Source of the DNA: Dehalococcoidia bacterium
GTDB taxonomy: Bacteria; Chloroflexota; Dehalococcoidia; Lucifugimonadales; UBA3495
Assembly (NCBI GenBank): GCA_963664375.1
Contig: OY761449.1
Coordinates: forward strand, 1,547,087 to 1,611,086
Length of the DNA: 64,000 bases
Reading direction: 5' to 3'
Shown here: positions 1,048 to 49,829 of the stretch, piece after piece
Layout of the letters: every line of letters begins with the position of its first letter
How positions within the stretch are numbered: the first letter of the stretch is position 1
The notes under the pieces: generated by a model
The model's input: the letters and a program-made list of their open reading frames with translations, nothing else
Database searches by the model: none
What the model was told of the DNA's origin: nothing
Program-made: the position numbers and the translations under genes

Positions 1048-1275
1048 ATGCCACGCACACCCGTAGTATCCGGGCGCGAGGCGGTTCGGGCCTTTGAGCG
1101 GGACGGATGGCAGTTCGTGCGGCAAACTGGCAGCCATGTAATTCTGACAAAGACGGGAGTTGCCCCGCATCTATCCATCCCCAATCACCGGGAAGTTTCG
1201 ACCCACACTCTTGCGCGGGAAATCAGGAAAGCCGGACTGACTACTGCCGAATTCATTGCGCTGCTCAACCGCTAA
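1048..1275 (+). CDS. hicA: HicA-family mRNA interferase toxin
   Basis: 75 aa. The SGREAVRAFERDGWQFVRQTGSHVIL....HLSIPNHREV motif belongs to the YcfA/HicA family. ATG at 1048 directly follows the hicB stop. Confidence 0.85.
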   Translation: MPRTPVVSGREAVRAFERDGWQFVRQTGSHVILTKTGVAPHLSIPNHREVSTHTLAREIRKAGLTTAEFIALLNR

Positions 1276-1994
1276 AGCAGCCCGGCCAGGCACCCGCGCA
1301 TACCCCGCATTGCCTCCGGAACCGATTCCCTGTTGTTGAAAATCGCGCTCCCTGCTACCAGGATTGTCGCCCCGGCCTTCACGGATTCCTGCGCCGTCCA
1401 GTCGGCCTTGACTCCCCCGTCGACCTCCACCTTTGCAGACAAACCACCGTCGTCAATCGCCTTCCGCAGCCTTCGAATCTTGTTCACGCTTTCGGGGATG
1501 AATGACTGACCAGCAAACCCCGGGTTGACCGACATCACCATCACGATGTCGAGAATAGAGAGCACCTCCTCAACCGCTGCGACCGGCGTGGCCGGGTTGA
1601 TGGCAACCCCCACCTGATTGCCCTGTTCCTTAACGTTGGACACGGTGCGATGCAGGTGCTGGCAGGCCTCCGCGTGCACCAGGATCTGGTCGGTCTCGGA
1701 CTTCAGGAACGTGGACATCAGGGCGTCCGGTTCCCTGACCATCAGGTGAATGTTCAAGGGCAGGTGCGTAGCGGCGCGAATGGCGTCCACCACCACTTCG
1801 CCGAAGGAAATGTTGGGGACAAACACCCCGTCCATAACGTCCACGTGGATGAGGTCGGCGCCCGCTTCGGTGGCGGCCTGCACCTGCTCAGCCAGCCGGC
1901 CAAAGTCGGCAGACAGCACCGACGGAGCGATTAAGATTCCTGGATTCCCGCTTTCTCTGGAATGACGGGAAATATCAGCCGCCATTGCCCGCAC
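1272..1994 (-). CDS. rpe: ribulose-phosphate 3-epimerase
   Basis: IAPSVLSADFGRLAEQV......GADLIHVDVMDGVFVPNISFG and VNPGFAGQSF motifs. The N-terminal ~20 codons run through a REP2 element and overlap the argH stop, so the start (1994 or 1985) is uncertain. Confidence 0.9.
   Translation of the reverse strand: MRAMAADISRHSRESGNPGILIAPSVLSADFGRLAEQVQAATEAGADLIHVDVMDGVFVPNISFGEVVVDAIRAATHLPLNIHLMVREPDALMSTFLKSETDQILVHAEACQHLHRTVSNVKEQGNQVGVAINPATPVAAVEEVLSILDIVMVMSVNPGFAGQSFIPESVNKIRRLRKAIDDGGLSAKVEVDGGVKADWTAQESVKAGATILVAGSAIFNNRESVPEAMRGMRGCLAGLL
1934..1968. repeat. REP2 hairpin element within the 5' end of the rpe ORF
   Basis: gattcctggattcccgctttctctggaatgacggg is translated as SRHSRESGNPG. 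Confidence 0.65.
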
Positions 1995-3363: not shown

Positions 3364-3549
3364 GTGGCAAGGTGGTATGCTGGTAACGTCACAACCGCGC
3401 CCGGATGGTTTCCCGGTTCATTCGCAAGGGATTGACTCCTCGTCACTGAGGGGCGACGTGGCTTGCCACTCGCCCCCGAGTGGTCCCTTGCGGGAACGGA
3501 ATGCGGTTGTGACGAATTGCAGTCTGCGCCACGAGGGGGCACTTTCATT

Positions 3550-4029
3550 ATGCGCAAGGTATTGAAATGGGGATCCATTGGCTGCGGTGGTCTGATTGGA
3601 CTAATCGTCGTAGTGATAATTATCGTGGCAGTAGCTGGTGGTGTCGAGGATGCTCAGAAGTCAGAGGTAGATCCCACTGCTGTCGCAATTGACTGGAACA
3701 CACTTAAAGACACGGCGGAAAGAGTCTCCTATGAAAACCTCTTCAGGAATAACGAGGAATGGAAAGGGAGGAGAGTATATTACAGAGGTAAAATCATTCA
3801 GGTAATTGAAGATAGCGGCAACGAGTTTCAGTTGCGAGCGAATGTCACGAAAGGAGAATTTTCTTGGGATGATACCGTATTTCTACGGTATTCAGGCGAG
3901 CGGCTTTTGGAAGACGACGTAATCGAGTTTGTAGGGAGAGTCAATGGTCTAATAAAGTATGAGGCCATCTTTGGAAACGAAGTCACTATCCCAGACATCA
4001 CTATCATCCAATCCCGAAGGATGCCGTGA
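3550..4029 (+). CDS. hypothetical membrane-anchored protein
   Basis: Start taken at MRKVLKWGS. It has one N-terminal TM helix (GLIGLIVVVIIIVAVAGG) followed by a soluble domain. The DNA is visibly more A/T-rich than its neighbours. Confidence 0.5.
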   Translation: MRKVLKWGSIGCGGLIGLIVVVIIIVAVAGGVEDAQKSEVDPTAVAIDWNTLKDTAERVSYENLFRNNEEWKGRRVYYRGKIIQVIEDSGNEFQLRANVTKGEFSWDDTVFLRYSGERLLEDDVIEFVGRVNGLIKYEAIFGNEVTIPDITIIQSRRMP

Positions 4030-4206
4030 GGCAGGGTCCGATACTCGCAATGAGTGGACGAACGTCAACAATGGCACAGCGTGAACAAATTTGGCGGCGG
4101 TGGCTTCCGAATCCCGCTATGCGATGGCTTTCCGGTCTGATATGCTGAATATACTGCAACAACGGGAGTTGCTGGGGAGATTCAATCTCGGTCTCTGGAG
4201 GAATCG

Positions 4207-4512
4207 ATGGAAGAAAAACAGTGGCCGCTTGGCGAATCCGAAGCCGGATTCGGGAAAATGCTAAGAAACCAATGGCAACTTGAAGAGGCCGAAACCAGGT
4301 TCCGGGAAATGCTGGCGGAAAGCGACGAGAAAGGCCCCATTATCATCGTCGAAAACGGTGTTAAGATGGGTGCGCTCTTGCCCTTTGAGCATTGGCGCCG
4401 ACTGGAGCTGAGGGCCGGGCCGGATCCGCTCCTGGCAGCGGAGCCACGCACCGAGAACTTGGCCGCGCCGCGCCGTCCGCTCCCAATGCGGCCGCCGCCT
4501 GTTTTTGATTAA
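4207..4512 (+). CDS. Phd/YefM-type antitoxin (VapB-like)
   Basis: GGAGG RBS 6 nt upstream. The W.LEEAETRFREML....GPIIIVENGVKMGALLPFEHWRRLE pattern fits this family. Its stop is 3 nt before the PIN toxin gene. Confidence 0.6.
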   Translation: MEEKQWPLGESEAGFGKMLRNQWQLEEAETRFREMLAESDEKGPIIIVENGVKMGALLPFEHWRRLELRAGPDPLLAAEPRTENLAAPRRPLPMRPPPVFD

Positions 4513-4515
4513 CAA

Positions 4516-4920
4516 ATGTTCCTCATGGACACCAACGTGATCTCCGAACTCCGTCGGCAACGCCCGCACGGAGGGGTATTGGCGTGGCTTGACAGCACAC
4601 CCCGCCATATCGTATTCCTGCCCGCGGTGGTTATCGGAGAAATACAGTCTGGAATAGAAATAACGCGCGAACAAGATACTTACCGAGCAAGGGAACTGGA
4701 GTCTTGGCTGGAGACATTGATATTGGCTTACCGGGTATTGCCGATGGACTTTCAGATTTTTCGGGCGTGGGCACGTCTCATGCACCGGAAATCAAACACC
4801 CTCAACGCCGATGCGATGATTGCCGCCACTGCCATCGTCCATGGCTTTACCGTCGTAACCCGCAACGTCAAGGACTTCGAGCAGTTCGGTGTCGCTTTGC
4901 TAAACCTTTTCGAAGGTTAG
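4516..4920 (+). CDS. vapC: PIN-domain toxin VapC (FitB-like)
   Basis: MFLMDTNVISELRR....L.....D.MIAATAIVHGFTVVTRNVKDF shows the canonical PIN acidic residues. Confidence 0.85.
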   Translation: MFLMDTNVISELRRQRPHGGVLAWLDSTPRHIVFLPAVVIGEIQSGIEITREQDTYRARELESWLETLILAYRVLPMDFQIFRAWARLMHRKSNTLNADAMIAATAIVHGFTVVTRNVKDFEQFGVALLNLFEG

Positions 4921-5000
4921 CTTGCTGCGTGCTATCAAGACGTCCGCTAATCCTTCCACATCGGGAGCTGATTCCCGTTGGGGCAACAACTGCGCGACGC

Positions 5001-5363
5001 TTACAGGGCCAGAGGAACGACCGTCGACGCCCGCAGCCTGCGATCGCGGGTAAGCAGAGGAACACGGTGGACGACACTGGTAGCTGCGATCAATTCGTCA
5101 GCGGGGTCGCTCCTGAAGTCGAGTTGGGTTGAGGCCCGGGCAATTGCCAGGTCAATAGGCCACACGTGCAAGCGGTCCAATAGGTCAATCACTTCTCGAT
5201 CTTCAAAGTCCAAGTGGATTCGGCTCAGTTGGACTAGTTTCGCTAGCTCCCACAGTACAACCGCCGAGATTGACCATTCTTCCCGATCCAGTAACACTTT
5301 TTCATCAGCCCTGAGCGTTCCATTAACGATGTAGACCACTATCTGAGTGTCCAGATTCAGCAT
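5001..5363 (-). CDS. PIN-domain toxin (VapC-like)
   Basis: MLNLDTQIVVY...WEL....DPADELIAATSVVHRVPLLTRDRRL fits a PIN fold. It overlaps the upstream antitoxin gene. Confidence 0.75.
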   Translation of the reverse strand: MLNLDTQIVVYIVNGTLRADEKVLLDREEWSISAVVLWELAKLVQLSRIHLDFEDREVIDLLDRLHVWPIDLAIARASTQLDFRSDPADELIAATSVVHRVPLLTRDRRLRASTVVPLAL

Positions 5364-5598
5364 CCCAGCGAATCCCCGTAGAAAAAATGTCGCCGTGTAT
5401 CTTGATTTTGTCCCGCAGGCTGCCGTTCAGGATATCTTGCCTCCACTGATAGTCCTGTTGCAGGTCGGGGACTTCGCTCAGTGGGGTGACTTTGGCGATG
5501 GGCTTGCCGTCTTGGGTAATGGTCAAGCCCTCGGCACTTAGCTGGGCCAGCAACTCCAGGCAATGTTCTTTGAAGTAGGCCGCTCCGACAGATTTCAT
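5323..5598 (-). CDS. antitoxin partner of the PIN toxin (Phd/YefM-like)
   Basis: 91 aa, MKSVGAAYFKEHCLELLAQLSAEGLTITQDGKPIAKVTPL. It lies immediately upstream of and overlaps the PIN gene. Confidence 0.6.
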   Translation of the reverse strand: MKSVGAAYFKEHCLELLAQLSAEGLTITQDGKPIAKVTPLSEVPDLQQDYQWRQDILNGSLRDKIKIHGDIFSTGIRWDAESGHSDSGLHR

Positions 5599-5677
5599 AA
5601 TCCTCTCCCTATAATGTGGATGGTATCATACGCCAGATGTTGCCGGTAAACTACGGCAAGCCGCCTGGAGTTCTTGC

Positions 5678-6697
5678 ATGAGAGTAACGCACCGCCTGGC
5701 ATCGAGTTCGCTGGCCGCCATTCCCGCCGAGGCCGCTTGGGCCGAGGCCATCGGCTACGACGCGCTGTCGAAGAACGAGACGGCCCACGACTCGTTCATC
5801 CCGCTGACGTTGGCCGCAACGTCCACCACCAGGGCCATGCTGCAAACCAGCGTGGCCATCGCCTTCCCGCGGTCGCCGATGATCGCCGCCTATACCGCCC
5901 GCGACCTGCAAGACCTGTCCCAAGGCCGGTTCCGGCTGGGGTTGGGAACGCAGGTGAAGGGGCACATCGAACGGCGGTTCTCCACGTCGTGGGAATCGCC
6001 GGGGCCTCGCCTGCGGGAGTACGTGCAGGCGCTGAAGGCCATCTGGTCGGCGTGGGAAACCGGGGAGCGCCTGAATTACCAGGGCAAACATTACCAGTTT
6101 ACCCTGATGACCCCGTTCTTCAGCCCGGGTCCCGGCGAATTTCCTCCCCCGCCGGTGTTTGCCGCCGCGGTCAACGCCTACAACTGCCAGGTGGCCGGTG
6201 AGGTGGCCGACGGACTGATGTTGCACAGCCTAACGTCGCCGGAATACGTCCGCGACGTGGTGCGCCCGGCGCTGGCCCGCGGCGCCGAACGCGCTGGCCG
6301 CGACGCTGGCGGGATCACGGTGAGCGGCGGCGGGTTCCTCATCACTGGCCCAAACCGCGCGTCCCTCAGAGCCGCCCAAGCCGAGGTGCGGCGGCGAATC
6401 GCCTTTTATGCCTCTACCCGCACCTACCACACGGTGCTGGCGGCTCATGGATTTGAGGAAATCGGCCAGCGGCTCCACGAAATGTCGCTGCGCGGAGAGT
6501 GGGCGGAGATGGGCGAGCTGGTCAGCGACGAAATGCTGCACGCATTCGCGGTTTCCGGTGAATACGACGAGATTGCCGGTGAATTCGCCAGGCGGTACGG
6601 GGGACTGCTGGACGAAGCGAGCTTTACGCTATATTCTGAGCAACCTCTTGGTGAATCGGACTTGCGGAGGATTGTCCGAGACTTTCGGGAGTTGTGA
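5678..6697 (+). CDS. LLM-class (luciferase-like) probable F420-dependent oxidoreductase
   Basis: 339 aa. The AEAIGYDALSKNETAHDSFIPLTLAA...GRFRLGLGTQVKGHIERRF pattern is typical of F420-dependent LLM oxidoreductases. Confidence 0.8.
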   Translation: MRVTHRLASSSLAAIPAEAAWAEAIGYDALSKNETAHDSFIPLTLAATSTTRAMLQTSVAIAFPRSPMIAAYTARDLQDLSQGRFRLGLGTQVKGHIERRFSTSWESPGPRLREYVQALKAIWSAWETGERLNYQGKHYQFTLMTPFFSPGPGEFPPPPVFAAAVNAYNCQVAGEVADGLMLHSLTSPEYVRDVVRPALARGAERAGRDAGGITVSGGGFLITGPNRASLRAAQAEVRRRIAFYASTRTYHTVLAAHGFEEIGQRLHEMSLRGEWAEMGELVSDEMLHAFAVSGEYDEIAGEFARRYGGLLDEASFTLYSEQPLGESDLRRIVRDFREL

Positions 6698-7761
6698 CTG
6701 AAATGCCTGCCGATTCCAGCTTCGCCCACCTCGTGGGTTCAGTGCCCCTTGCCGACTCGGAGACCGTCTTCCGCACGGTGGCTGGCACTCTGGGCCCGCA
6801 CCTGCGGCGAATACCCGACGGCGAGACCGGCGAGCGTATCCGCTGGATATGGTTCCAGCGCGAGATGCTGCTCAATCATCCCGACATGGAAATCGACGAG
6901 GACGCGGGCCTTTTCGCCGTATACCAGTGGGACGGCGTACTGTTGCGGGAGTCGCCCTACGTCCGATTCAAACCCTCCGTTGACCCGGACAAGGTACGCT
7001 TTCCCACTGGTTACGCGGAAGCTGCCACTGCGTCCTACGCCACTTTTTCGCGGCTGCGAGACGAGGGAGCCATCGGGCAGGAGGTTCTCTTTCAAGTCTC
7101 CCTGCCCACGCCCATGGCGACAGGTTTCATGTACGTCAGCGACGCCGCGCGCGATGCCTACCTGCCCGCGTACGAGCGGTCGCTGACGGAGGCGCTGGAC
7201 GGAATTCTCGCCGCGGTGCCGCACGAACGGCTCTCCATCCAGTGGGACGTGTGCCAGGAGGTGCTGCTTTTCGAGGACTACTTTTCGTACCGTCCTGACG
7301 ATTACAAGGAACAGGTATTCGATGAACTGGGTAGGCTGGGCGGGAAGGTGCCGGAGCCGGTGGACCTCGGCTTCCACCTCTGCTACGGTTCGCCCGCCGA
7401 CGAGCACCTGGTAATGCCGGAAGGCATGGGGATCCTCGTCGAGATCGGCAATGGGCTGGCATCCCGTTTGCAACGGCGGCTGGACTTCCTGCACTTGCCG
7501 GTGCCGAGAGACCGCACCGACCGGGAATACTTCCTACCCTTGCAGGGCCTGGACATTTCCGGGGACACCGGCATCATTCTGGGACTCATCCACCACGATG
7601 ACGCGCAGGGCGATGTCGCAAGGATAACGGCGGCGCGGGAATTCCTGCCCACCTTTGGCGTAGCCAGCGAGTGCGGCTGGGGACGCACCGACCCCACGCG
7701 CGTTCCGGGCCTGCTGGAAAGCCACCGCCGGGCCGTGGAGCACCTGAACCGGGCGGGCTAG
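6694..7761 (+). CDS. hypothetical protein, MetE-C-terminal/UROD-like with putative Zn motif
   Basis: GTG at 6694 overlaps the LLM stop (GTGA); ATG at 6703 is an alternative start. FHLCYGS and ASECGWGR resemble the His/Cys...Cys Zn ligands of cobalamin-independent methionine-synthase-like proteins. Confidence 0.5.
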   Translation: MTEMPADSSFAHLVGSVPLADSETVFRTVAGTLGPHLRRIPDGETGERIRWIWFQREMLLNHPDMEIDEDAGLFAVYQWDGVLLRESPYVRFKPSVDPDKVRFPTGYAEAATASYATFSRLRDEGAIGQEVLFQVSLPTPMATGFMYVSDAARDAYLPAYERSLTEALDGILAAVPHERLSIQWDVCQEVLLFEDYFSYRPDDYKEQVFDELGRLGGKVPEPVDLGFHLCYGSPADEHLVMPEGMGILVEIGNGLASRLQRRLDFLHLPVPRDRTDREYFLPLQGLDISGDTGIILGLIHHDDAQGDVARITAAREFLPTFGVASECGWGRTDPTRVPGLLESHRRAVEHLNRAG

Positions 7762-7796
7762 CGGTTCAACTCATCGGAATTGATGGCTTTCTATCC

Positions 7797-7860
7797 GCTT
7801 ACCCTGAGCCTGTCGAAGGGCTGTCTGTTCGTGGTTCGACAAGCTCACCATGAACGGACT
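7797..7860. repeat. REP-like element, family 4 (translates as PEPVEGLSVRGSTSSP / ...RQAHHER)
   Basis: The intergenic sequence accctgagcctgtcgaagggc...gttcgtggttcgacaagctcaccatgaacgg is a repeat type widely seen as junk ORFs in many genomes. Only one copy is in this window. Confidence 0.5.
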
Positions 7861-7898
7861 TCCGTTTTCCATCAAATCAACGGGGATGGTCTGCTAGC

Positions 7899-8711
7899 TC
7901 AGGAATAGAGGAAACGCCACTCCGTGCTGCCCAGTCCGAACCGGATGCGGCGGAAGGCCTCCGTGTATGGCACGCCGCTCTTTTCGCTGTAGCGGGTGGC
8001 GTTGTTGCTGATGCGCGACAGCCGCTCCTCGGTGGTCGCTGGCGACATCTGGCTGGCGTGCGCCTCTAGCGAGAGGGTCTTGGCCTCCAGGTAGTTGCCT
8101 ATCTCGACAAACACGTCGGGCGACTCGCTGCCCCACATGTAGGCCTGTTCCACCATGTGGGGTTCCAGCCCCTCCCCGGTAATCTGTTCCGGGAAATGCA
8201 GGTAGCTCCAGGCATAGGTGAACGCCGCATCCAGGGCAACCTGCCCGCTCTTGCGGTGGTCCCTGTGCGTGTGGCTGGTGCTGCGGTACGGGTCGATGCA
8301 CAGTATGGTGTCGGGCTTATAGCGTCGGATCTCCCGCACCACCTGGCTGCGGAACAGTTCGGTGTCCTCCAGCCCGCCGTCGGGGTGGCGGAGGAACACC
8401 ACGTCCTTGGCTCCAATGATCTCGGATGCGGCCAGTTGCTCCTCCTCTCGAATCGCGGCCAGCCTCTCCGGGGTAAGATCGCGCTCCTGGGTGCCCTTGT
8501 TGCCGTTGGTGCACATCACCACCACGGCCTGGGTGCCGAATTCCCTAACCCACTTGGCCAGCGCGCCGCCGCAACCGCCCTCGCAATCATCGGGGTGCGG
8601 CGTGACCGCCAGGGCCACCCGGGGCGCCGTGGTCAGTATCTCGAAATCCTCGCCATCGTTTCCGGCTGACGGGACAGGACCGGACATGCCGAATTGCGTG
8701 TTCTGGAGCAT
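7899..8711 (-). CDS. PIG-L/LmbE-family N-acetylglucosaminyl deacetylase
   Basis: ALAVTPHPDDCEGGCGG and HTHRDHR motifs. Start chosen at MLQNTQF (8711); the longer ORF to 8816 runs toward a REP element. Confidence 0.8.
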   Translation of the reverse strand: MLQNTQFGMSGPVPSAGNDGEDFEILTTAPRVALAVTPHPDDCEGGCGGALAKWVREFGTQAVVVMCTNGNKGTQERDLTPERLAAIREEEQLAASEIIGAKDVVFLRHPDGGLEDTELFRSQVVREIRRYKPDTILCIDPYRSTSHTHRDHRKSGQVALDAAFTYAWSYLHFPEQITGEGLEPHMVEQAYMWGSESPDVFVEIGNYLEAKTLSLEAHASQMSPATTEERLSRISNNATRYSEKSGVPYTEAFRRIRFGLGSTEWRFLYS

Positions 8712-8816
8712 AAACTGGTTCCTTTTCCCATTTTTCTCGGAAGGTGGGCCTATCGCCTTATGCCGAAGACATGCCGAACATGACAGCATCCGATGTTCCT
8801 GAAAAAGCAGAGGCAC

Positions 8817-8853
8817 GCCCTCACCCTAACCCTCTCCCGGAGGGAGAGGGAAA
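8817..8853 (+). repeat. REP1 hairpin element (CCCTCACCCTAACCCTCTCCC-GGA-GGGAGAGGGAA)
   Basis: Intergenic copy. Stem CCTCTCCC/GGGAGAGG. Translates as [11 protein letters not shown] in junk ORFs. Confidence 0.8.
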
Positions 8854-8868
8854 ATGAAACATGCTCTC

Positions 8869-9528
8869 TCAGCCGGACAGGGTGGTGGACCGGCCCACCT
8901 CAGTGGCCGCGTAGCGCCCGGAGCGGCCGGGGATACGCTCCAGCCAGCCGAACTTTGATCTGGCGGCGTTGCGGATGGTCTGGGTGAAGTTGTTGGCGCG
9001 GCGCCATCCTATCAGGTCGAACAATTCGCCAGCCTCGTCGGCCGTGACCCCTTCCAGGCCGAAGAACCGGTCGGCGGCCTCGGTGGCGACGACGACCCTC
9101 CGCATGTCGCCCGTCGGATTTATCGCCTCGCAGAAGGCGACGAAGTCCTGCTTGGACTGCGGAGAGTAGCCGCCCAAGTCCAGCGTATCGTCCCCGGATT
9201 CCCCGTGATAGGCCCCGTTCGCGCCGTTCCCGGAAGGCGCGTAACTTGCAGAGGGATTCGCCCCGCGTCCAGGATGCTGGCCCAGGCCATTGGCAGGATC
9301 CCTCGATACTTCGGCCACTCTGGGCGAAACGTATCCGGGTACACCGATACTTTTTTCCGCTACGCGCTCTACTTCAACTGCCGAACCGGACTGGGCCTCT
9401 CCGGCCTGCTGGCCGTCCGTCTGCATGGTGCTCAAGACCTGGGCCAACACCTCGTGTACTGGCTCGGCGCCGTCCGATTCCAGCGTAACAAGGGCGCCGT
9501 TAGGCAGCGTTATGGACAATTTCAGCAT
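8869..9528 (-). CDS. hypothetical protein
   Basis: 219-aa ORF with coding-like GC3 bias. No family recognised. Confidence 0.45.
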   Translation of the reverse strand: MLKLSITLPNGALVTLESDGAEPVHEVLAQVLSTMQTDGQQAGEAQSGSAVEVERVAEKSIGVPGYVSPRVAEVSRDPANGLGQHPGRGANPSASYAPSGNGANGAYHGESGDDTLDLGGYSPQSKQDFVAFCEAINPTGDMRRVVVATEAADRFFGLEGVTADEAGELFDLIGWRRANNFTQTIRNAARSKFGWLERIPGRSGRYAATEVGRSTTLSG

Positions 9529-9714
9529 GCCTTTCCCGTTACCCGGACATACCTCACCCGGCTACCCTAGGTATATGATACCCGCGGGTAATAGTCAAGA
9601 CATAATGCAACGTGTTACCAATTTCCCCGTTATGTAAACCAGGGACTCTTGCGAGTCCCGGGTCGGCGCGCTGGGGGGTACGGGCGCGGGGCCTCTGGCA
9701 ATTGAGTACCGCCG

Positions 9715-11601
9715 CTAGATGGTCTGCTTGAGGCGTATCGCCAGCGACCGCGTCATTCCCGGCACGGCGGCAATCTCGTCCACCGCGGCCTCCTTGATGC
9801 CCTTGAGAGAACCGAAGCGGCGCATCAGCATGCGCTTGCGTTTCGGGCCTATCCCGCTGACCAGGTCGATGGGCGATCCCAGACTGCCCTTGCTCCGCAG
9901 GTTGCGGTGATAGGTGATGGCAAAGCGGTGCGCCTCGTCTCGAATCCTCTGCACCAGGTACAGGGCCTGGGAGTCTCTCGGCAGTATGATCGGTTCAGGC
10001 GTATGGGGCACGAAAAGCCACTCGTTTTCCTTGGCCAGGGACGCCAGCGGGATATCTTCCAGCCCCAGCTCAAGCATGACCTCCAGGGCGGCGGAAAGCT
10101 GGCCCTTGCCCCCGTCGATCAGCACCAGGTCCGGGACGGCAGCCCAGCCGGTATCGGCGGCCGCTTCGGTTTCCCCGCTGTCCTTGGTATTCCTGGCGGC
10201 GGCCAGACGCTTGAAACGTCGGCGAAGCACCTCGCGCATGCTCTCGAAATCGTCCACGCCGTCAACGGTCTTTACCTTGAAACGGCGGTACTGCGAACGC
10301 TTTGACTGGCCGTCCTCGAACACCACCATGCTGCCCACGGAGTTGCTGCCCTGGATGTGCGAGATGTCGTAGCACTCCATGCGGCGCAGCGGCAGGGGCA
10401 ATGAAAGTTCCTCTTCGAGTTCCGACATGGCCTGCTGGATTACGTCCAGGTTGTCCAGCCACTTGATGCGGTGCTGGGCCAGGCCCTGCCGGGCGTTGTC
10501 GGCCACCGTTTCCACAAGCTGCCGGTGCAAGCCCCTCTGCGGCCATACCAGCCGTACCGCGCCCTGCCGGAGACCGCGCAGCCACTCGGTAACCACCTCT
10601 TCGTCCTCAACCTGATGCTGGGTGACGATGCGGGGCGGGATGGTCTGGGCCGAGCCGTAGAACTGCTTGATGAACTGCCCAATGACGACGGCGGCGGAAT
10701 CGTCCTGCGCTCCCTCCATGAAGAAATGATCGCGGCCTATGAGCTTGCCCTTGCGGATGAAGAACACCTCGACCCAAGCCTCGGCGGAACCCTGCGCCAC
10801 GGCGATCACGTCCATTCCCGCCTGCCACGTGGGGTTGCCGCCAGCGGCCGGGTTTGAATCGACCTTGATACGCCGCTCCTCGGCCACCCTTTCCACGGCC
10901 TTGATCCGGTCGCGCAACACCGCCGCCCGCTCGAACTCCAGCTCCTCCGCGGCCCGGTTCATGTTTTCTTCCAGGTCTTGCGTTACCGAGTCGGTGTCGC
11001 CCTCCATGAACATGACGACCTGGTCGATGACCTTGGCGTATTCCTCGCGGCTGGCAAAGCCCGTGCATGGAGCCACGCACCGGTTGATGTAGTACTCCAG
11101 GCAGGGGCGCGGATCGGTCCCGGTGATCTTCTTGGTGCAGGAGCGGTAGGGGAAGAGCCGCTTCACCAGGTCCATGGACTTCCGCACTGTGTTGGCGGTG
11201 GCGAAAGGCCCGAAATACCTTGCGCCGTCCTTGGCAACCCGGCGGGTGATGTAGACCCTGGGGAATTCCTCGTTCAGGTCGATTTTCAGGTAGGGGTAGG
11301 TCTTGTCGTCCTTGAGGCGGGCGTTGTAGCGGGGCTTGTAGCGCTTGATCAGCGTGTTTTCCAGAATGAGCGCCTCTGCCTCCGTGTCCGTGACGATGTA
11401 CTCGAAGTCGTGGACATGCCCCATCATGCGGCGCGTCTTGTTGGCCTGGGCGGAAGGCGAGCCAAAATACGTTCGGAGCCGGTTGCGCAGTACGCTGGCC
11501 TTTCCCACGTACAGCACCGTGCCGCGGGCGTCCTTCATGAGGTACACGCCCGGGCGCTCCGGGGTGGCTTGCAGCCGTTGTTCAACCAGTGGCAGGGGCA
11601 T
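9715..11601 (-). CDS. uvrC: excinuclease ABC subunit C
   Basis: 628 aa. GIY-YIG N-terminus (PGVYLMKDARGTVLYVGKA), a UvrBC domain and a C-terminal HhH (GIGPKRKRMLMRRFGS). Confidence 0.95.
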   Translation of the reverse strand: MPLPLVEQRLQATPERPGVYLMKDARGTVLYVGKASVLRNRLRTYFGSPSAQANKTRRMMGHVHDFEYIVTDTEAEALILENTLIKRYKPRYNARLKDDKTYPYLKIDLNEEFPRVYITRRVAKDGARYFGPFATANTVRKSMDLVKRLFPYRSCTKKITGTDPRPCLEYYINRCVAPCTGFASREEYAKVIDQVVMFMEGDTDSVTQDLEENMNRAAEELEFERAAVLRDRIKAVERVAEERRIKVDSNPAAGGNPTWQAGMDVIAVAQGSAEAWVEVFFIRKGKLIGRDHFFMEGAQDDSAAVVIGQFIKQFYGSAQTIPPRIVTQHQVEDEEVVTEWLRGLRQGAVRLVWPQRGLHRQLVETVADNARQGLAQHRIKWLDNLDVIQQAMSELEEELSLPLPLRRMECYDISHIQGSNSVGSMVVFEDGQSKRSQYRRFKVKTVDGVDDFESMREVLRRRFKRLAAARNTKDSGETEAAADTGWAAVPDLVLIDGGKGQLSAALEVMLELGLEDIPLASLAKENEWLFVPHTPEPIILPRDSQALYLVQRIRDEAHRFAITYHRNLRSKGSLGSPIDLVSGIGPKRKRMLMRRFGSLKGIKEAAVDEIAAVPGMTRSLAIRLKQTI

Positions 11602-37241: not shown

Positions 37242-37847
37242 TCAAATCAACATTTCAACACGGTCGAGTTCGCCCGCTACCGGATTCACGTTGAACCCCA
37301 GCGATTCGAGAGCCGTGACACCCATTACCGTGGGGTCGCCGTCTTCGCCGAAGACCACCGTCACCCCTGCCACTTCGCCACCATAGGTCAGAATGACCGT
37401 TCCCGTGGCCCGCGTAATGAAGCCGCCGAAGCCTCGCAGCCTCCGCTGGCCGGTCCGCTGGATTCCCAGGCGGTCCAGCAGGCTGGCCGGGAAAACGCTA
37501 AGCGTAGCTCCGGCATCCACCAGAACGTTGACTTCCTCGGCGCTGCCCGGCGCCGATGGATTCGACAAACCGACGTTGACGTGAACGAAACCCATACTTA
37601 CAGCTCCAAGGGATGGTTTGACAGGGATACCCGCGAGCGGGTCGGAAAAGACTTTGCTTATAGGTTCGCACACCCCGGCCCTGTCCCCGCGCCCTTTGAT
37701 AGCGCCGAGATTAACGACCTTTCGGTCTTCCGTCCACTTTCTGCTCTGGAGGTAAGCAACGAGGGCTTTTGCGTCATGCCCGTGCTCTTCCGAGATGCTG
37801 TCTTTGATTCGCCAGAGTTCCCTGATGATTTCATCAGACATAACCAA
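37242..37847 (-). CDS. fusion ORF: antitoxin-like N-terminal segment plus retropepsin-like aspartic protease domain
   Basis: 201-aa uninterrupted frame. Residues 1-50 (MVMSDEIIRELWRIKDSISEEHGHDAKALVAYLQSRKW) resemble small partners of the upstream PIN family. Residues ~86-201 (MGFVHVNVGL...VLVDAGATLSVFP...LGFNVNPVAGELDRV) are paralogous to 17754..18113. Confidence 0.6.
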   Translation of the reverse strand: MVMSDEIIRELWRIKDSISEEHGHDAKALVAYLQSRKWTEDRKVVNLGAIKGRGDRAGVCEPISKVFSDPLAGIPVKPSLGAVSMGFVHVNVGLSNPSAPGSAEEVNVLVDAGATLSVFPASLLDRLGIQRTGQRRLRGFGGFITRATGTVILTYGGEVAGVTVVFGEDGDPTVMGVTALESLGFNVNPVAGELDRVEMLI

Positions 37848-38364
37848 AGTCTCCCATCAACTCGCGCGGGGAGCATATTTCAGGGCTGGTGCAACCTTGC
37901 TGAGCGCATACTTCTCGGACAATGGGTCTTGATGCCGCATTCGCAAGATGACGAAAATTCCAAGTCAAAAGATAATCTACACCATGCGCCGCTGACACAG
38001 CAATGTGAAGGGCATCCGCTTCGGATCTCGCCGGGACCGCCCCGTTTTCCAGGAGCGCAACCATCAATCCGGTCACTCGCCCGGTGAGTGTCAGGATGGG
38101 AATGCCGTCCAATGCTTCAAGGCGGCGCGCAGCCGCTTGCGGGTCGCCCTTGCCCGCTTCCTCGATGGTTAGGTCGGAGGTATAGAGGTCGAACCGGGTT
38201 CTATGCGATTCCCACCAGTCAATTGTAATCTTTTGCCAGGCGGCCGCCAACAAGTCGCTCGAAGGCCGCGCCGTCAGATAAGACACGACTGATGTCTCGA
38301 TATAGACCGTGCGCTTGGGTATTTCCGTTCGTTCCGTGGAAGTTTCGCTGTCTGGAAGGAGCAT
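37834..38364 (-). CDS. PIN-like domain protein (VapC-type, TWNF.H motif family)
   Basis: VYIETSVVSYL...EADALHIAVSAAHGVDYLLTWNFRHLAN fits this family. Its ATG at 38364 shares one base with the upstream gene's TGA. Confidence 0.7.
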   Translation of the reverse strand: MLLPDSETSTERTEIPKRTVYIETSVVSYLTARPSSDLLAAAWQKITIDWWESHRTRFDLYTSDLTIEEAGKGDPQAAARRLEALDGIPILTLTGRVTGLMVALLENGAVPARSEADALHIAVSAAHGVDYLLTWNFRHLANAASRPIVREVCAQQGCTSPEICSPRELMGDFGYV

Positions 38365-38804
38365 CACGACTCCGCCGCATCCCGCCACATGGCGCAGCCG
38401 GTTGCGCCCAGGACCAGCGGCAGCAGAGTGTCCACCACCGCCCAGATTACCCACGCCTGGTGGTTGTTCGATTCAAGCCCCACCTTCAGGAAGGCAATCC
38501 AGTTGTGAAGGAACAGGATTGTGATCCCGGCCGTCAGGTAAAGGGCAACGTTTGCCTCCAGGTACCTGCGGGTGATCCCGTCGCCGGAATACTGGGAGTC
38601 CATCCTTCGCTTCCGGTCGAAATTGTATGCCAGTCCCACAACCAACCCAACCGCCATCAGGATGTCCAGGACGAACCAGACGTCCGACACGTCCAGGTTG
38701 TCGAGGAAAAGAATATTGATACTGAACCAGACGGCCACCGCCACGGCGACGCCTATCAGATATACCGCCCCCAGCCGTTTCAGCCCGGTCATGCCTGCCT
38801 CCAT
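38364..38804 (-). CDS. hypothetical integral membrane protein (about 4 TM helices)
   Basis: Hydrophobic segments GAVYLIGVAVAVAVWF, VWFVLDILMAVGLVVGLAY, ALYLTAGITILFLHNWIAF and VIWAVVDTLLPLVLGATG. Start chosen at MEAGMTG; the ORF extends to 38927. Confidence 0.5.
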   Translation of the reverse strand: MEAGMTGLKRLGAVYLIGVAVAVAVWFSINILFLDNLDVSDVWFVLDILMAVGLVVGLAYNFDRKRRMDSQYSGDGITRRYLEANVALYLTAGITILFLHNWIAFLKVGLESNNHQAWVIWAVVDTLLPLVLGATGCAMWRDAAES

Positions 38805-40729: not shown

Positions 40730-41728
40730 ATGCCTTACGGACTCGACGAGCGCACGGCGTCCATCTACGCCCCGATTCAGGCCGAGCTGGCCCTGGTTGA
40801 CGAGAAGCTGCGCGGCCTTGCCCCTGCCGAAGTCGGGCACCTGCGCCCTCTCCTCGATTACGTTGCGGAGACTGGCGGCAAGCGTGTCCGGCCCGCGATT
40901 ACGCTGCTGGCCGGGCAGTTGGGCGCCCACAAGGGACGCCCCTACGATTCCGAAAAGCTGGTGCTCATGGCCGGGGCCGTCGAACTGCTGCACCTGGCTA
41001 CGCTGATCCATGACGACACCGTAGACGACTCGCCAACCCGCCGGGGGCAGGCCACCGTGGGCAGCGTGTGGGGGAATCAGGTGGCCGTCCTGTTCGGCGA
41101 TTACGTTTTCGCCACGTCGGCGACTTTTGTCTGCGACACGGACAATATCCGCATCATGCGCCGGTTTTCCGAAACGATAATGGACCTCGCCAGTGGCGAG
41201 CTTATCGAGTACTTCGGCTCCTTTGACGCCACCCAGGCCAGGGAACACTACAACGACCGCATCTACCGCAAGACCGCATCCCTCTTCTGCACCGCCGGTG
41301 AATCGGGCGCCCTGCTCGGCGGCGGCCCCGAGAACGAAGTCCAGGCCATGCGCCGTTACGGCTACAACATCGGCATGGCCTACCAGGTCGGCGACGACCT
41401 GCTGGATTTCGAGGGAGACGAGAGCGACCTGGGCAAGCCGGTAGGCTCCGACCTGCTGCATGGAGTGTTGACGCTGCCCACCATCATGCTGGAGGAGCGC
41501 AACCCGGCCGATAGGCCGGTGTCCCAGTTCTTCAGCGACCGCGACAACCCGGCCAAGCTCCAGCGCGTCGTTGACATGATCCACAATTCCAGCATCATCG
41601 GCGACTGCGAGCAGGTGGTAAAGGACTATTGCCACCGGGCATGTGAGGAGCTGAACGCAATGCCCGACGGAGAGGCCCGCCGCTCCCTCCAGGAACTCGC
41701 CGAATACGTCTACAACCGCAGGCGATAG
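40730..41728 (+). CDS. polyprenyl diphosphate synthase (trans-IPPS, hepta/octaprenyl type)
   Basis: LIHDDTVDD (FARM) and GDDLLDF (SARM) motifs. Confidence 0.9.
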   Translation: MPYGLDERTASIYAPIQAELALVDEKLRGLAPAEVGHLRPLLDYVAETGGKRVRPAITLLAGQLGAHKGRPYDSEKLVLMAGAVELLHLATLIHDDTVDDSPTRRGQATVGSVWGNQVAVLFGDYVFATSATFVCDTDNIRIMRRFSETIMDLASGELIEYFGSFDATQAREHYNDRIYRKTASLFCTAGESGALLGGGPENEVQAMRRYGYNIGMAYQVGDDLLDFEGDESDLGKPVGSDLLHGVLTLPTIMLEERNPADRPVSQFFSDRDNPAKLQRVVDMIHNSSIIGDCEQVVKDYCHRACEELNAMPDGEARRSLQELAEYVYNRRR

Positions 41729-41798
41729 TCGCGCATTCCCGTTGATTCCCGGGACGTGATACCATCGGTAGCAGCCGGATGCTCAAGGTGCTTCAATA

Positions 41799-43130
41799 AT
41801 GGAAAGCGTAACCGTCAAAAATTTCCGTTGCTTCCGTGAGGAACAGACGGCCCGGCTGGCGCCTCTGACCTTCCTCGTCGGCGAGAACAGCACGGGCAAG
41901 ACATCGTTCCTGGCCTTGCTAAGGGCGCTTTGGGATGTGGCGTTCCGGGAGGTTGCCCCTGATTTCCGTGAACCGCCCTATGACTTGGGCAGTTTCGGTG
42001 ACATTGTGCATGACCGCGGGAGGGATGAAGCCCAAGAATCGGACGGTTTCGAAGTCGGCTTTGAATGCCTGAAGTCTAAAGCCGATGCGAAGATGACCTA
42101 TCACGACAGTCTTTTTTTCCGTGCGACTTTTAGGGAGAAACAGAGTGTTCCCTTTCCAGTATCGCGGAGCTTTTCTTGTAGTGGCCATTGGGTAAAAACC
42201 TATGCAACAGAGGACGGCGGTATTGCCGTTCATTTCGGAACGCCCGAAAAGGAATGGGAGCGCAAAATCACCCCTGCCTTTCCTTTTTCGCAAGGTGACA
42301 GACTAACCGGGCTAATGCCAATCCTAGACGCCTTGACTCCCTCGAAATCTTCAGAAGGCCGGCCGGAGTCGGACGAATCTGTATCCAGGGCTGATATACA
42401 GATGATATTTGACTCTTTGCTTCCACTTGATTTCTTTGGATACCCGTATGCTGGATCGCCCGTCCGCTCCTCCCCCAAGCGAACCTACGACCCCATTCGC
42501 CCGTCGCGAGACCCGGAAGGGGAGTACATACCGACATACCTTGCGAATATGGCGCGACGAAATCCCAGAATATGGGCAACCCTCAAGTCGGATTTGGAAA
42601 AATTCGGAAAGCAGTCCGGCTTGTTTGACGAAATTGAGATCAATTCCTTTGGCAATACCGCGGGCGGGCCTTTCCAGGTACACATCGGGAAGCGTGGTAA
42701 GAAATCCGGCGGGAATGCTCGAAACCTGATCGACGTCGGCTACGGCGTCAGCCAGGCGTTGCCGCCCATCACCGAATTGTTCAATCCCGACCCGACCCCG
42801 CTGTTCCTGTTGCAGCAGCCGGAGGTTCACCTGCACCCCAGCGCGCAGGCCGCCCTCGGAACGCTGTTCTGCTCCATCGCCGGTCCAGAGCGGCAGTTGG
42901 TGGTGGAAACACACAGCGACTTCATCCTCGACCGCGTGCTTATGGACATCCGGGACAAAACGACGGACTTGAGGGCGGATGACGTTTCGATACTCTACTT
43001 CGAGCCGAACGATGACCGGGACGTTACCATCCACTCGCTGCGGTTGGACGAGCGGGCAAATATCCTGAACGCGCCCCCCGGCTATCGACAGTTTTTCGCC
43101 GATGAATTGTGGCGCTCCGTAGGGTTGTGA
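41799..43130 (+). CDS. ABC-type AAA ATPase (AAA_15/21, DUF3696-like)
   Basis: 443 aa. VKNFRCF....L.PLTFLVGENSTGKTS is Walker A, DVGYGVSQ is signature-like, LFLLQQPEVHLHP is Walker B/D-loop and VETHSD is the H-loop. The DNA is more A/T-rich than its flanks. Confidence 0.8.
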   Translation: MESVTVKNFRCFREEQTARLAPLTFLVGENSTGKTSFLALLRALWDVAFREVAPDFREPPYDLGSFGDIVHDRGRDEAQESDGFEVGFECLKSKADAKMTYHDSLFFRATFREKQSVPFPVSRSFSCSGHWVKTYATEDGGIAVHFGTPEKEWERKITPAFPFSQGDRLTGLMPILDALTPSKSSEGRPESDESVSRADIQMIFDSLLPLDFFGYPYAGSPVRSSPKRTYDPIRPSRDPEGEYIPTYLANMARRNPRIWATLKSDLEKFGKQSGLFDEIEINSFGNTAGGPFQVHIGKRGKKSGGNARNLIDVGYGVSQALPPITELFNPDPTPLFLLQQPEVHLHPSAQAALGTLFCSIAGPERQLVVETHSDFILDRVLMDIRDKTTDLRADDVSILYFEPNDDRDVTIHSLRLDERANILNAPPGYRQFFADELWRSVGL

Positions 43131-43597
43131 TGTGCGCCATTGTAGACGCCAATGTCCGGGACGAAGTATTTGGCGGCGCTTCCTCAGAGGCGGGGAAGTT
43201 TTTCCTGGACTGGTTGCGGAGGCCAAACGGCGGCCTGTTAGCATTGGGCGGCAAGCTAAGACAGGAACTAAGCGGGTTGGAGAATTTCCGGAGAATTTAT
43301 GATCTGCTGCGACTGAATGGCCGCATTGTGGATATAGACGACGATGTGGTTGACGCCGAAACCGCAGCCCTCGAAGCCCTGCGAATCTGCCGCTCCAACG
43401 ACGCCCACGTGCTCGCGCTGGCCCGGGTGAGTGGCGCCCGGTTGCTGTACACCAACGACCAGTCGCTTCAGGATGACTTCGGCGACCCTAGGATTGTCGC
43501 CAACCCAAGGGGCCGGGTCTATACCACCCGCCTGCGCAGCGATGTGAGGCCAACCCACCGCGAGTTGCTGGAGCGCGCCGACCTCTGCGCCCGCTGA
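43130..43597 (+). CDS. PIN-like nuclease domain protein
   Basis: The ATG shares its A with the ATPase TGA (TGATG). MCAIVDANV...., ...CRSNDAHVLALARVSGARLLYTNDQSL gives a PIN-like Asp pattern. Fold assignment is from motif reading only. Confidence 0.6.
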   Translation: MCAIVDANVRDEVFGGASSEAGKFFLDWLRRPNGGLLALGGKLRQELSGLENFRRIYDLLRLNGRIVDIDDDVVDAETAALEALRICRSNDAHVLALARVSGARLLYTNDQSLQDDFGDPRIVANPRGRVYTTRLRSDVRPTHRELLERADLCAR

Positions 43598-43705
43598 CTC
43601 GCCGCGCTTGACGTATTCCCAACCCCTTGGCTACACTTTCGCCAGCATCAGGCGGCCTGCCCCTGTTGTTTTTCCGTACCTGAAAATTTAACTGCGGACG
43701 GATTT

Positions 43706-46726: not shown

Positions 46727-47650
46727 ATGCAGTTCTTTAATCGAAATGAGGAACTGGACCGGTACCGGGGAGCCCTGTTGGGGTTGGCCGTGGGAGATGC
46801 CTTGGGCGCGCCAGTGGAATTCATGCGACCGGGAACGTTCGATCCCGTGACCGAGATGCTCGGCGGCGGCCCCCACGGGCTGATGCCCGGCGAATGGACC
46901 GACGACACCTCCATGGCCCTCTGCCTGGCGGAAAGTCTGATCGAATGCCGGGGATTCAACGCCGTGGACCAGTTGCAGCGGTACGTCCGGTGGTGGCGCA
47001 ACGGACACCTGAGCAGCACCGGCTTCTGTTTCGACATTGGAAATACTACCAGGGCCGCCTTGGAAGCCTTCGAATCATCGGGAGAACCTTCCGGACTGAC
47101 ATCGCCGGACACGGCTGGCAACGGGTCGATCATGCGGCTTGCTCCTATCCCAATGTACTATGTCCTGAACCTAGAGGATGCCATTGAGTTCGCTGGCCAG
47201 AGTTCGATGACCACCCACGCCGCTGATGAGTCGGTAAGCGCCTGCCGCTACATGGCTGCCGTGATTGCCAGGGCGCTCCGCGGCCGCGAGAAAGAGGACG
47301 TCCTCGCGCCCCCGCGGTCTGCCGGTCTGGCGGACGGCGTAAAGAGAGTCGCGTTCGGGTCGTTCAGGATTTTCAATCCTCCTCAAATCAGGGGGAGCGG
47401 CTACGTGGTGGAATCGCTGGAGGCGGCCCTGTGGGCTTTCCATCACACGGACAACTTCGCCGACGGCGCTTGCATGGCGGTAAGCCTGGGCGAGGACTCC
47501 GACACCACGGCGGCGGTTTACGGCCAGATCGCCGGGGCCTTTTACGGGGCCAACTGCATACCCGCGCGGTGGGCCAATGCGGTGGTTCGAAAGGAATTGA
47601 TCATTGATTTCGCCGACCAGCTTTATCACCTGCGCCATGAGACGCTGTAA
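46727..47650 (+). CDS. ADP-ribosylglycohydrolase family protein (DraG-like)
   Basis: YRGALLGLAVGDALGAPVEF and GEWTDDTSMALCLAESL motifs. Confidence 0.85.
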   Translation: MQFFNRNEELDRYRGALLGLAVGDALGAPVEFMRPGTFDPVTEMLGGGPHGLMPGEWTDDTSMALCLAESLIECRGFNAVDQLQRYVRWWRNGHLSSTGFCFDIGNTTRAALEAFESSGEPSGLTSPDTAGNGSIMRLAPIPMYYVLNLEDAIEFAGQSSMTTHAADESVSACRYMAAVIARALRGREKEDVLAPPRSAGLADGVKRVAFGSFRIFNPPQIRGSGYVVESLEAALWAFHHTDNFADGACMAVSLGEDSDTTAAVYGQIAGAFYGANCIPARWANAVVRKELIIDFADQLYHLRHETL

Positions 47651-49129: not shown

Positions 49130-49501
49130 ATGGAAGATTCTCAGCTAGAAAGGTACAAGCTGGCTACCCTGGAAGTCCTTGAGTCCTTGGGCGGTATCGC
49201 CGACACTCGCCATTTGGCCGACTCGGTGTTCCTGAGTCTGGACGATGTGCCGCCCGAAGACCTTGATTATGACTATGCCGGTTTGTCACGCAATCTGCGT
49301 CTAGCCCGGGAGTCCCTGTTAAAGGAAGGGAATGTCACATTGACCGACGGAAGGATATGGCGCCTGGCTCGTCCTCAGCGTGCTCCCACAGCCGAGTCGT
49401 TTCAGCCAGACTTGGGGGAGGATGAATTCTGGGATCGTTTGACAATAGAGCAGTTCTTTGCAGGGTACTCTGAAGAGGATGCCCTGTATGACACAATCTA
49501 G
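49130..49501 (+). CDS. hypothetical protein, putative antitoxin of the MazF-like toxin
   Basis: 123 aa. It lies upstream of and overlaps the toxin gene. The C-terminal WDRLTIEQFFAGYSEEDALYD tail is antitoxin-like. The DNA is A/T-richer. Confidence 0.4.
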   Translation: MEDSQLERYKLATLEVLESLGGIADTRHLADSVFLSLDDVPPEDLDYDYAGLSRNLRLARESLLKEGNVTLTDGRIWRLARPQRAPTAESFQPDLGEDEFWDRLTIEQFFAGYSEEDALYDTI

Positions 49502-49829
49502 AAGTACCCGGAGATACTTGCTTGGTGACGTTGTAACTCTGGTGGACCCTGTAGCAGGTGGAGGTGTGCCTCGTCCGGCTTTAATTCTGGCGGATACTGG
49601 GGATGACGATGTTGTTGTTGCCCGTATCACTACTCACCAGACCAGGGATCCTTTCGATGTTTCACTTAACGACTTGTCGCACGCTAGACTGAACCGCCCG
49701 TCCGTAGTCAGGCCGCATAAGCTAGCCACAATACAGAGGAACAGAGTAAATCGCAAAATAGGCACTCTGTCAGACGCAGACTTAGGAAGGGTACAGGAAT
49801 CCTTTAGCCGGTTGGGTATAGTTGAATAG
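49488..49829 (+). CDS. MazF/PemK-family toxin
   Basis: YLLGDVVTLV.......PRPALILADTGDDDVVVARITTH......DV.L.....GL.RPSVVRPHKLATI.....NRKIGTLS pattern. Confidence 0.7.
   Translation: MTQSRSTRRYLLGDVVTLVDPVAGGGVPRPALILADTGDDDVVVARITTHQTRDPFDVSLNDLSHARLNRPSVVRPHKLATIQRNRVNRKIGTLSDADLGRVQESFSRLGIVE

Follow-up and report, generated by a model that had tools for sequence, protein, structure and literature searches.

The 64,000-nucleotide (nt) window analysed here, from Dehalococcoidia bacterium contig OY761449.1, carries a two-gene operon in which a 443-amino-acid (aa) ATP-binding cassette (ABC) ATPase is followed directly by a stand-alone 155-aa PIN-domain protein. The pair is a divergent relative of the phage defence system HEC-03, not a new kind of system, and is probably a mobile two-gene anti-phage cassette of the abortive-infection type with HEC-03 architecture. 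We favour a defence function because HEC-03, with the same gene order and gene sizes, defends against phage, because the chromosomal hotspot holding the pair carries defence and toxin-antitoxin (TA) cargo in related genomes, because identities of the cassette and of its flanking genes disagree, and because some homologs lie in defence loci. All coordinates are positions within the window unless a locus (L number) is named, and the features of the cassette are listed in Table 1.

The ATPase stop codon and the PIN start codon have one base in common within the TGATG at 43128–43132, and the coordinates, lengths and translational coupling given for these two open reading frames (ORFs) in an earlier note on this stretch were all confirmed. 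The PIN start is placed at ATG 43130, rather than at GTG 43109, because residues M1-C2-A3 are unvarying in the alignment of homologs. The genes are flanked by a polyprenyl synthase gene on the upstream side and a GATase gene on the downstream side. The earlier note had described the whole pair as richer in A/T than its surroundings, which was correct for its first part: GC content falls to 0.51–0.54 only across ~41750–42750, compared with 0.60–0.67 in the flanks, whereas values are 0.58–0.61 from the 3' part of the ATPase gene through the PIN gene (~0.59–0.60 in the latter).

The ATPase–PIN pair is a conserved operon whose genes stay together in different phyla. Scanning one genome per species, we detected 126 loci with a PIN relative and fetched the best 80 (42–77% identical to the window PIN); a second genome scan with a broader PIN alignment gave 79 loci that partly overlap the first set and cover the same identity range. 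The co-occurrence implied by the two-gene module of the earlier note was nearly universal: 79 of the 80 loci have an ATPase homolog immediately upstream in the same orientation, the lone exception having just 104 nt of contig upstream, and so do 77/79 loci of the second set, where both exceptions are at contig ends. Spacing between the two genes ranges from −17 to +21 nt (71 loci), and reverse look-up from ATPase homologs found a PIN gene directly downstream in both cases examined (2/2). Pairwise identities among the ATPases track those among the PIN proteins (r = 0.63, Mantel p = 0.001), and clustering of all ORFs from the 80 loci revealed no third conserved gene. The distribution is patchy across phyla and covers more than 12 bacterial lineages, with the 80 PIN loci spanning Dehalococcoidia and other Chloroflexota, Spirochaetia, Latescibacterota, Binatia, Rhodothermales, Nitrospirales, Nitrospinota, Gemmatimonadetes, Acidimicrobiales, Vicinamibacterales, Thermodesulfobacteriota, Alpha- and Gammaproteobacteria, Entotheonellaceae, and others.

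Comparison of related chromosomes indicated that the pair is an acquired accessory islet, as the earlier note had supposed, and that the site between polyprenyl synthase and GATase is a variable hotspot. We fetched 80 loci via the upstream polyprenyl synthase, 38 of which, from Dehalococcoidia, keep the window synteny of metG, polyprenyl synthase, and GATase. The site is empty in 26 of these 38, with a spacer of 90–401 bp, including in the closest relatives, namely L081, L082, and L117, with flanking genes 91–99% identical to those of the window. Six of the 38 contain the ATPase–PIN pair, and three contain VapBC-type PIN modules composed of a small upstream ORF and a PIN toxin (L109 7006–7754, L111 7006–7757, L112 7090–7779). 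The remaining occupied sites include one with a complete Menshen system (L114 7076–10300, minus strand; NsnA in two pieces, 9.5e-67 and 1.1e-44; NsnB 4.5e-104; NsnC 7.2e-101), one with a lone NsnA-like GmrSD_N/DUF262 gene (L127 8274–9338, minus strand), and one with a 581-aa SLFN_AlbA_2 and HATPase_c_4 protein that matches pAgo-associated PADLOC models (L115 7274–9019). Cassette and flanks also diverge to different degrees between genomes. In L122 the flanks are 92–99% identical to the window, yet the ATPase is 64% and the PIN 67% identical; in L113 the flanks are 70–90% identical and the cassette proteins 73% (ATPase) and 77% (PIN). The site is a clear case of cassette turnover, in genomes without obvious mobile-element genes there.

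Homology to the empty sites stops at ~41728 and resumes at ~43606, indicating that the inserted unit consists of the two genes and a 70-nt leader only. No direct or inverted repeats were found flanking the insertion, and no integrase or transposase adjoins the cassette among the window ORFs. No sigma-70-like site was found within the leader (41729–41798), the nearest being at 41571–41598 inside the upstream gene, and a search of the window found no convincing promoter or terminator belonging to the cassette itself. A promoter-like element, TTGACG-N18-TACACT at 43608–43637, lies just 3' of the cassette and ahead of the GATase gene. Genomes with empty sites also keep it, and it presumably serves the GATase (split glutamate-synthase-like) operon as its native promoter, the insertion having left it intact.

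A minority of the homologs adjoin recognisable defence genes. The locus L241 (1–9392) is a dense defence island in which an ATPase homolog (53% identical) and a C-terminally truncated PIN of 128 aa lie between DUF1156 and DUF499 genes, together with a DUF433/DUF5615 pair, an AAA_21 and DUF4276 (PARIS/HEC-01-like) pair, and a HEPN gene. In six loci from Spirochaetia metagenome-assembled genomes (MAGs; L016, L019, L021, L022, L023, L026; ~1260–10520), a gene of ~1,090–1,140 aa is directly upstream of the pair in most and a gene of ~1,080–1,350 aa is downstream in all. The sizes and number of these large neighbours agree with SNF2/ResIII helicase and Eco57I/MmeI-type methyltransferase matches, which suggests that the pair is embedded there in a restriction-modification- or BREX-like locus.

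Nearly all of the loci L001–L239 derive from MAGs, and many of their isolate names (SB066x_bin, RHO1-3_bin, COS4_bin, Plut_, jk18x/p16x bins, and the OZ/OY/CBD series with uuid) look like those of sponge or coral microbiome projects. If this origin is true, symbionts from different phyla that live together may be passing the family among themselves.

The window ATPase matches Pfam AAA_15 (5.6e-20) and AAA_21 (9.6e-18), and weakly RecF and SMC_N; an NCBIfam scan of the ATPase and the PIN protein gave sub-threshold matches only for both. The GENSTGKT, LLQQPEVHLHP, and ETHSD motifs singled out in the earlier note are all present and invariant across 50 ATPase homologs. Its description of the protein as DUF3696-like holds through profile alignment, in which the tail aligns to the DUF3696 region of NsnB, the Menshen ATPase, but not through Pfam, where the DUF3696 match (aa 393–428, 15.9 bits, E 0.016) is under the 22-bit cut-off. 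An AlphaFold2 (AF2) model with a predicted local distance difference test score (pLDDT) of 80 has an ABC fold, and its Foldseek matches include Rad50/SMC heads, PtuA, and GajA. Among PADLOC models NsnB is the best match (2.8e-41, 140 bits, full length), followed by the HEC-03 ATPase model (HEC-03B, 3.7e-27, 93.5 bits, two partial stretches) and then by PDC-M55A and AriA; the AriA, GajA, and PtuA models match only the ABC core (E 1e-22 to 1e-9). For the PADLOC candidate PDC-M55, the published supplement identifies its families by anonymous numbers only. Direct comparison with the true NsnB of L114 gave an hhalign probability of 99.6% (E 8e-24) over the whole length including the DUF3696 tail, and comparison with the HEC-03 ATPase by BLASTP gave 23% identity over the full length (E 2e-19). 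Judged by these similarities, the window ATPase belongs to a branch that is sister to NsnB of Menshen and to the ATPase of HEC-03.

In the ATPase, Gln339 and Gln340 sit where the Walker B acid and the catalytic Glu would be expected. HMMER aligns them with the EE of OLD 6p74 (IIEEPEMYLHP) and the EE of GajA (LIEEPE), and hhalign aligns them with the EN of true NsnB. Both are kept in 75/75 and 76/77 of the ATPase homologs adjoining PIN genes in the two sets. In ABC ATPases these two positions provide the Mg-coordinating acid and the catalytic base, and Glu-to-Gln mutants retain ATP binding and dimerisation while barely hydrolysing ATP. Because both the Walker B acid and the catalytic Glu are replaced by Gln, hydrolysis by the window ATPase is probably slow or absent, and the protein would be a nucleotide-dependent switch, not a motor. 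The earlier note, while quoting the LLQQPE motif, had passed over the Gln-Gln at these positions.

In Insert-1 (aa 81–215) of the ATPase, the consensus residue occurs in just 0.23–0.44 of 72 sequences, compared with 0.70–0.94 in the core. This hypervariable insert is the GC-poorest stretch, overlapping a GC content of 0.514 at 42000–42499, and parts of it have low pLDDT in the AF2 model. It is the obvious candidate for a sensing surface.

The second ORF, which the earlier note had called PIN-like, scores 29.1 bits against Pfam PIN (gathering score 23.6). The acidic residues of its IVDANV, SNDAH, and YTNDQ motifs are D6, D91, and D110. Across homologs with pairwise identities down to 36%, all 72 sequences have D6, E46, D91, and D116, and 70 of the 72 have D110. 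The protein keeps the canonical D-E-D-D set of active PIN nucleases, with an intact Mg2+-binding site. A search of the family profile against PDB sequences found nothing meaningful (best E 0.48, to TPR proteins), and a fold search was therefore needed. The top 19 Foldseek PDB matches of the AF2 model (pLDDT 92.7) are mainly VapC/VapBC toxins with a few uncharacterised archaeal PIN-type proteins, at a probability of 0.98–1.0 for the first 12 and TM scores of 0.44–0.52; the model thus supports a PIN fold of a VapC-like but divergent branch. When a library of 1.84 billion cluster representatives was searched with the profile, 1,914 proteins reached E ≤ 1e-3 and 1,334 of them E ≤ 1e-10, a family size of ~1,900 being counted in representative clusters at 50% identity. 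The best 150 matches are all stand-alone proteins, mostly of ~145–175 aa (range 116–208).

HEC-03 (Hma-embedded candidate 03) was described from Pseudomonas cichorii as a DUF3696 ABC ATPase of 461 aa (WP_025259138.1) and a VapC-like PIN protein of 157 aa (WP_025259137.1), encoded by overlapping genes at 322707–324092 and 324079–324552 (Payne et al. 2024, bioRxiv 10.1101/2024.01.29.577857). Its defence against phage in E. coli needed both genes (bioRxiv 10.1101/2024.01.29.577857). The window pair has the same layout, an ATPase gene followed by an overlapping or abutting PIN gene in a two-gene operon, with 443 and 155 aa in place of 461 and 157. Both ATPases are of the AAA_15/AAA_21 ABC type with DUF3696 (recognised in the window tail via the NsnB alignment), both PIN proteins are stand-alone and VapC-like with catalytic acidic residues in register, and in both ATPases the catalytic Glu after Walker B is Gln (MEQPE in HEC-03, LLQQPE here). 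The window family differs in having Gln at both Walker B positions, in an ATPase just 23% identical to that of HEC-03, and in a best PADLOC profile that is NsnB rather than HEC-03B. It also occurs in different hosts, uncultured Dehalococcoidia and other marine MAG lineages as opposed to Proteobacteria, and the window cassette lies outside any Hachiman locus. The cysteines and histidines of the two PIN families follow different patterns: Cys2 and Cys153, at the two termini of the window family, are invariant, with C87 and H143 less conserved, and in the HEC-03 family C23, C27, and C150 are invariant and H153 nearly so. These residues may bind metal or form disulfides, at sites not common to the two families.

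Taken together, the comparisons suggest that the window pair represents a distinct family of HEC-03 architecture, sister to HEC-03 and to Menshen NsnB/NsnC and a member of neither as currently modelled. The earlier note did not recognise an ATPase and PIN combination among named systems. This proved incorrect, since HEC-03 is a DUF3696 ABC ATPase with a PIN protein and proven phage defence, and Menshen NsnB/NsnC is likewise an ATPase bound to a PIN-like (inactive) domain. In architecture the pair thus matches an already named system, whereas current detection models do not assign it to one. These models would miss the family because its PIN has no PADLOC match and its ATPase scores only partially on the NsnB and HEC-03 models.

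Menshen comprises NsnA, NsnB, and NsnC (Millman et al. 2022; Li et al. 2025, PMC12065111). Its sensor, NsnA, is of the ParB-DUF262 type (with ParBDB); NsnB is an ABC ATPase that has a DUF3696 tail and a GxG variant of the ABC signature; NsnC joins an inactive PIN-like domain to a nuclease effector at its C terminus; in AF3 models two NsnB tails clamp the PIN-like domain of NsnC, and sporadic domain loss is reported (PMC12065111). Beyond this paper, searches of the literature on DUF3696, and on AAA_15 with PIN, returned essentially nothing. The window pair has in common with Menshen an ATPase homologous to NsnB over its whole length including the tail, a downstream partner of PIN fold, and an altered Walker B Asp-Glu dyad (QQ here, EN in NsnB), and its DVGYGVSQ motif corresponds to the GxG signature variant. 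A genuine Menshen (L114) also occupies the same chromosomal hotspot. In contrast to Menshen, no NsnA is present in the window, where the flanks are polyprenyl synthase and GATase, or conserved across the 80 loci. The window PIN is stand-alone, lacks a C-terminal nuclease domain, and keeps D-E-D-D, whereas the NsnC PIN-like domains are catalytically dead, and the window ATPase scores 140 bits with the NsnB model compared with 347 for true NsnB. No similarity between the window PIN family and the NsnC of the genuine Menshen was found with hhalign, nor any PADLOC NsnC match. Within L114 itself, a related Dehalococcoidia MAG, the Walker B of NsnB reads LIENPEVHLHP, and NsnA is in two ORFs (9689–10300 and 9175–9726), a split that suggests a frameshift or an assembly error.

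The pairing of an OLD-type ABC ATPase with a nuclease effector is also found in PARIS (AriA/AriB), Septu (PtuA/PtuB), and Gabija (GajA), in which the ATPase is believed to restrain or gate the nuclease until the cell is infected. The earlier note had invoked this logic, with the ATPase as sensor and a separate nuclease as effector, and a regulatory role of the ATPase agrees with its homology to NsnB and the ATPase of HEC-03. The effector differs, being a PIN protein here and Toprim (AriB, the GajA C-terminal domain) or HNH (PtuB) there. The window ATPase also has a DUF3696-like tail and a QQ Walker B, unlike the ATPases of those systems, to which its similarity is limited to the ABC core motifs.

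We hypothesize that the ATPase binds ATP and self-associates via its ABC heads, whose Walker A, signature-like, and H-loop motifs are intact, and that it would act as a switch with slow or absent hydrolysis. The oligomer would hold the PIN protein inactive via its DUF3696-like C-terminal tails, a step proposed because such an arrangement is predicted for NsnB–NsnC and seen for AriA–AriB of PARIS. A phage cue read by Insert-1 would change the conformation of the ATPase and free or activate the PIN protein. As a VapC-like enzyme, this may cut RNA, most likely tRNA, rRNA, or mRNA, and the resulting translation arrest would block phage replication by abortive infection. We regard a defence function as likely and the individual mechanistic steps as less so.

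A bolder proposal, possible though doubtful, is that a DUF3696 ATPase with an active PIN represents the ancestral, self-sufficient core of Menshen, in which the PIN later became a dead adaptor with a new nuclease and a ParB-like sensor was added. In this clade the ATPase would be a natural 'EQ-type' ABC protein that senses infection by its hypervariable insert and controls the PIN by ATP binding without hydrolysis.

Several observations weigh against defence and against a close tie to HEC-03. Most homologs of the pair adjoin ordinary metabolic genes, with recognisable defence genes next to a minority. The window PIN had no tblastn match in PLSDB plasmids or INPHARED phages and a profile-based scan of IMG/VR found no relative; therefore, there is no evidence that known mobile elements carry the pair. 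No PADLOC model, including that of the HEC-03 PIN, matched the window PIN at E ≤ 1, BLASTP did not align it with the HEC-03 PIN, and hhalign related the two PIN families only weakly (49.6%, E 1.7e-4, 113 columns). HEC-03 was shown by phage assay to defend, whereas the window family is known from sequence and models alone, and it is by analogy that we infer that the tail binds the PIN, how QQ affects hydrolysis, what triggers the system, and which RNA is cut.

An alternative is a TA-type addiction or stress module, in which a VapC-like toxin would be neutralised by the ATPase in place of VapB and the pair would be self-stabilising or stress-responsive with no dedicated anti-phage role. We consider this unlikely. 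The PIN model does most resemble VapC toxins, which are its best structural matches and have in common with it a PIN-fold effector with a D-E-D-D site. Classical VapBC pairs occupy the same hotspot in L109, L111, and L112, other small TA-like cassettes are present in the window (a MazF pair and another PIN ORF), and many loci of the pair lie among housekeeping genes. However, type II VapBC modules have a small DNA-binding VapB antitoxin, and the protein encoded upstream here is an ABC ATPase of 443 aa that carries a hypervariable insert. HEC-03, in architecture the nearest relative to have been tested, protects against phage and needs both of its genes to do so, and PARIS, Septu, and Menshen, which are ATPase–nuclease pairs of the same clade, all act in defence. 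A module could, moreover, behave as a TA pair and also defend by abortive infection.

Far less probable is a housekeeping pair of the core genome for nucleic-acid processing or repair, composed of a RecF/SMC-like ATPase and a nuclease. The weak RecF and SMC_N matches, the resemblance of the ATPase model to Rad50/SMC heads, and a position between housekeeping genes that is occupied in several Dehalococcoidia are consistent with such a role, but the site is empty in 26/38 syntenic loci, including genomes with flanks 91–99% identical, the phylogenies of cassette and flanks disagree, the distribution across phyla is patchy, and hypervariable inserts are typical of conflict systems. Least probable of all is a decayed Menshen in which loss of the NsnA sensor and of the C-terminal NsnC effector left a non-functional NsnB with a PIN stub: NsnB is indeed the best PADLOC match of the ATPase (2.8e-41, with 99.6% hhalign probability to true NsnB), a complete Menshen sits in the same hotspot (L114), and Menshen loses domains sporadically (PMC12065111), but this reading is largely refuted by the conservation data, as both genes persist as intact full-length ORFs without NsnA in more than 12 lineages and the PIN catalytic residues absent from Menshen inPIN domains are invariant, and it also sits poorly with an NsnB model score of 140 bits vs 347, a Walker B of QQ and not EN, and a PIN without detectable similarity to NsnC.

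Table 1 Features of the ATPase–PIN cassette in the window.
Feature	Position	Strand	Evidence or remarks
Left cassette edge, leader	41729..41798	+	70 nt from polyprenyl synthase stop codon to ATPase start; empty-site homology (L081, L082, L117) ends ~41728
ABC ATPase, AAA_15/AAA_21 (OLD-ABC) type, with DUF3696-like tail	41799..43130	+	443 aa; Pfam, PADLOC, hhalign, BLASTP, AF2/Foldseek
Walker A / P-loop GENSTGKT, aa 28–35	41880..41903	+	G28, N30, S31, G33, K34, T35 invariant in 50 homologs
Insert-1, hypervariable, aa 81–215, candidate sensor surface	42039..42443	+	Low consensus fraction; GC-poorest stretch
Signature-like motif DVGYGVSQ, aa 312–319	42732..42755	+	D312, G314, Y315, G316, S318, Q319 invariant in 50 homologs
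Walker B / D-loop LLQQPEVHLHP, aa 337–347	42807..42839	+	Gln339-Gln340 at 42813–42818
H-loop ETHSD, aa 370–374	42906..42920	+	E370, T371, H372, S373 invariant in 50 homologs
DUF3696-like C-terminal tail, aa 393–443, beta-hairpin and helix; predicted PIN docking site	42975..43127	+	Sub-threshold Pfam match; hhalign to NsnB
Stand-alone PIN protein, 155 aa	43130..43597	+	ATG at 43130; catalytic D6 (43145–43147), E46 (43265–43267), D91 (43400–43402), D110 (43457–43459)
Right cassette edge	43598..43605	+	Empty-site homology restarts ~43606

Other small elements were observed elsewhere in the window. An ORF at 49130..49501 (123 aa, no Pfam match) overlaps one at 49458..49829 (123 aa, PemK/MazF toxin, 6.7e-13) in a second GC dip (0.53–0.55) between putative glutamine synthetase and putative sarcosine oxidase genes, and the two look like another small TA-type islet. 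A third PIN/TA-like element is the 206-aa ORF at 37834–38454 (minus strand), just upstream of metG in a GC dip of 0.54–0.56, with a PIN domain of 25.5 bits (aa 50–164). An ADP-ribosylglycohydrolase gene (46727–47650, 4e-78) lies directly 3' of three putative split glutamate synthase genes.

The ATPase–PIN family links HEC-03, which is validated and of unknown mechanism, with Menshen, since it combines an NsnB-like ATPase and tail with a PIN of the active type. Its invariant Gln-Gln is a natural experiment on whether defence by ABC ATPases needs ATP hydrolysis or ATP binding alone. The family also marks an annotation gap, and adding it to defence models would serve Chloroflexota and other uncultured marine lineages.

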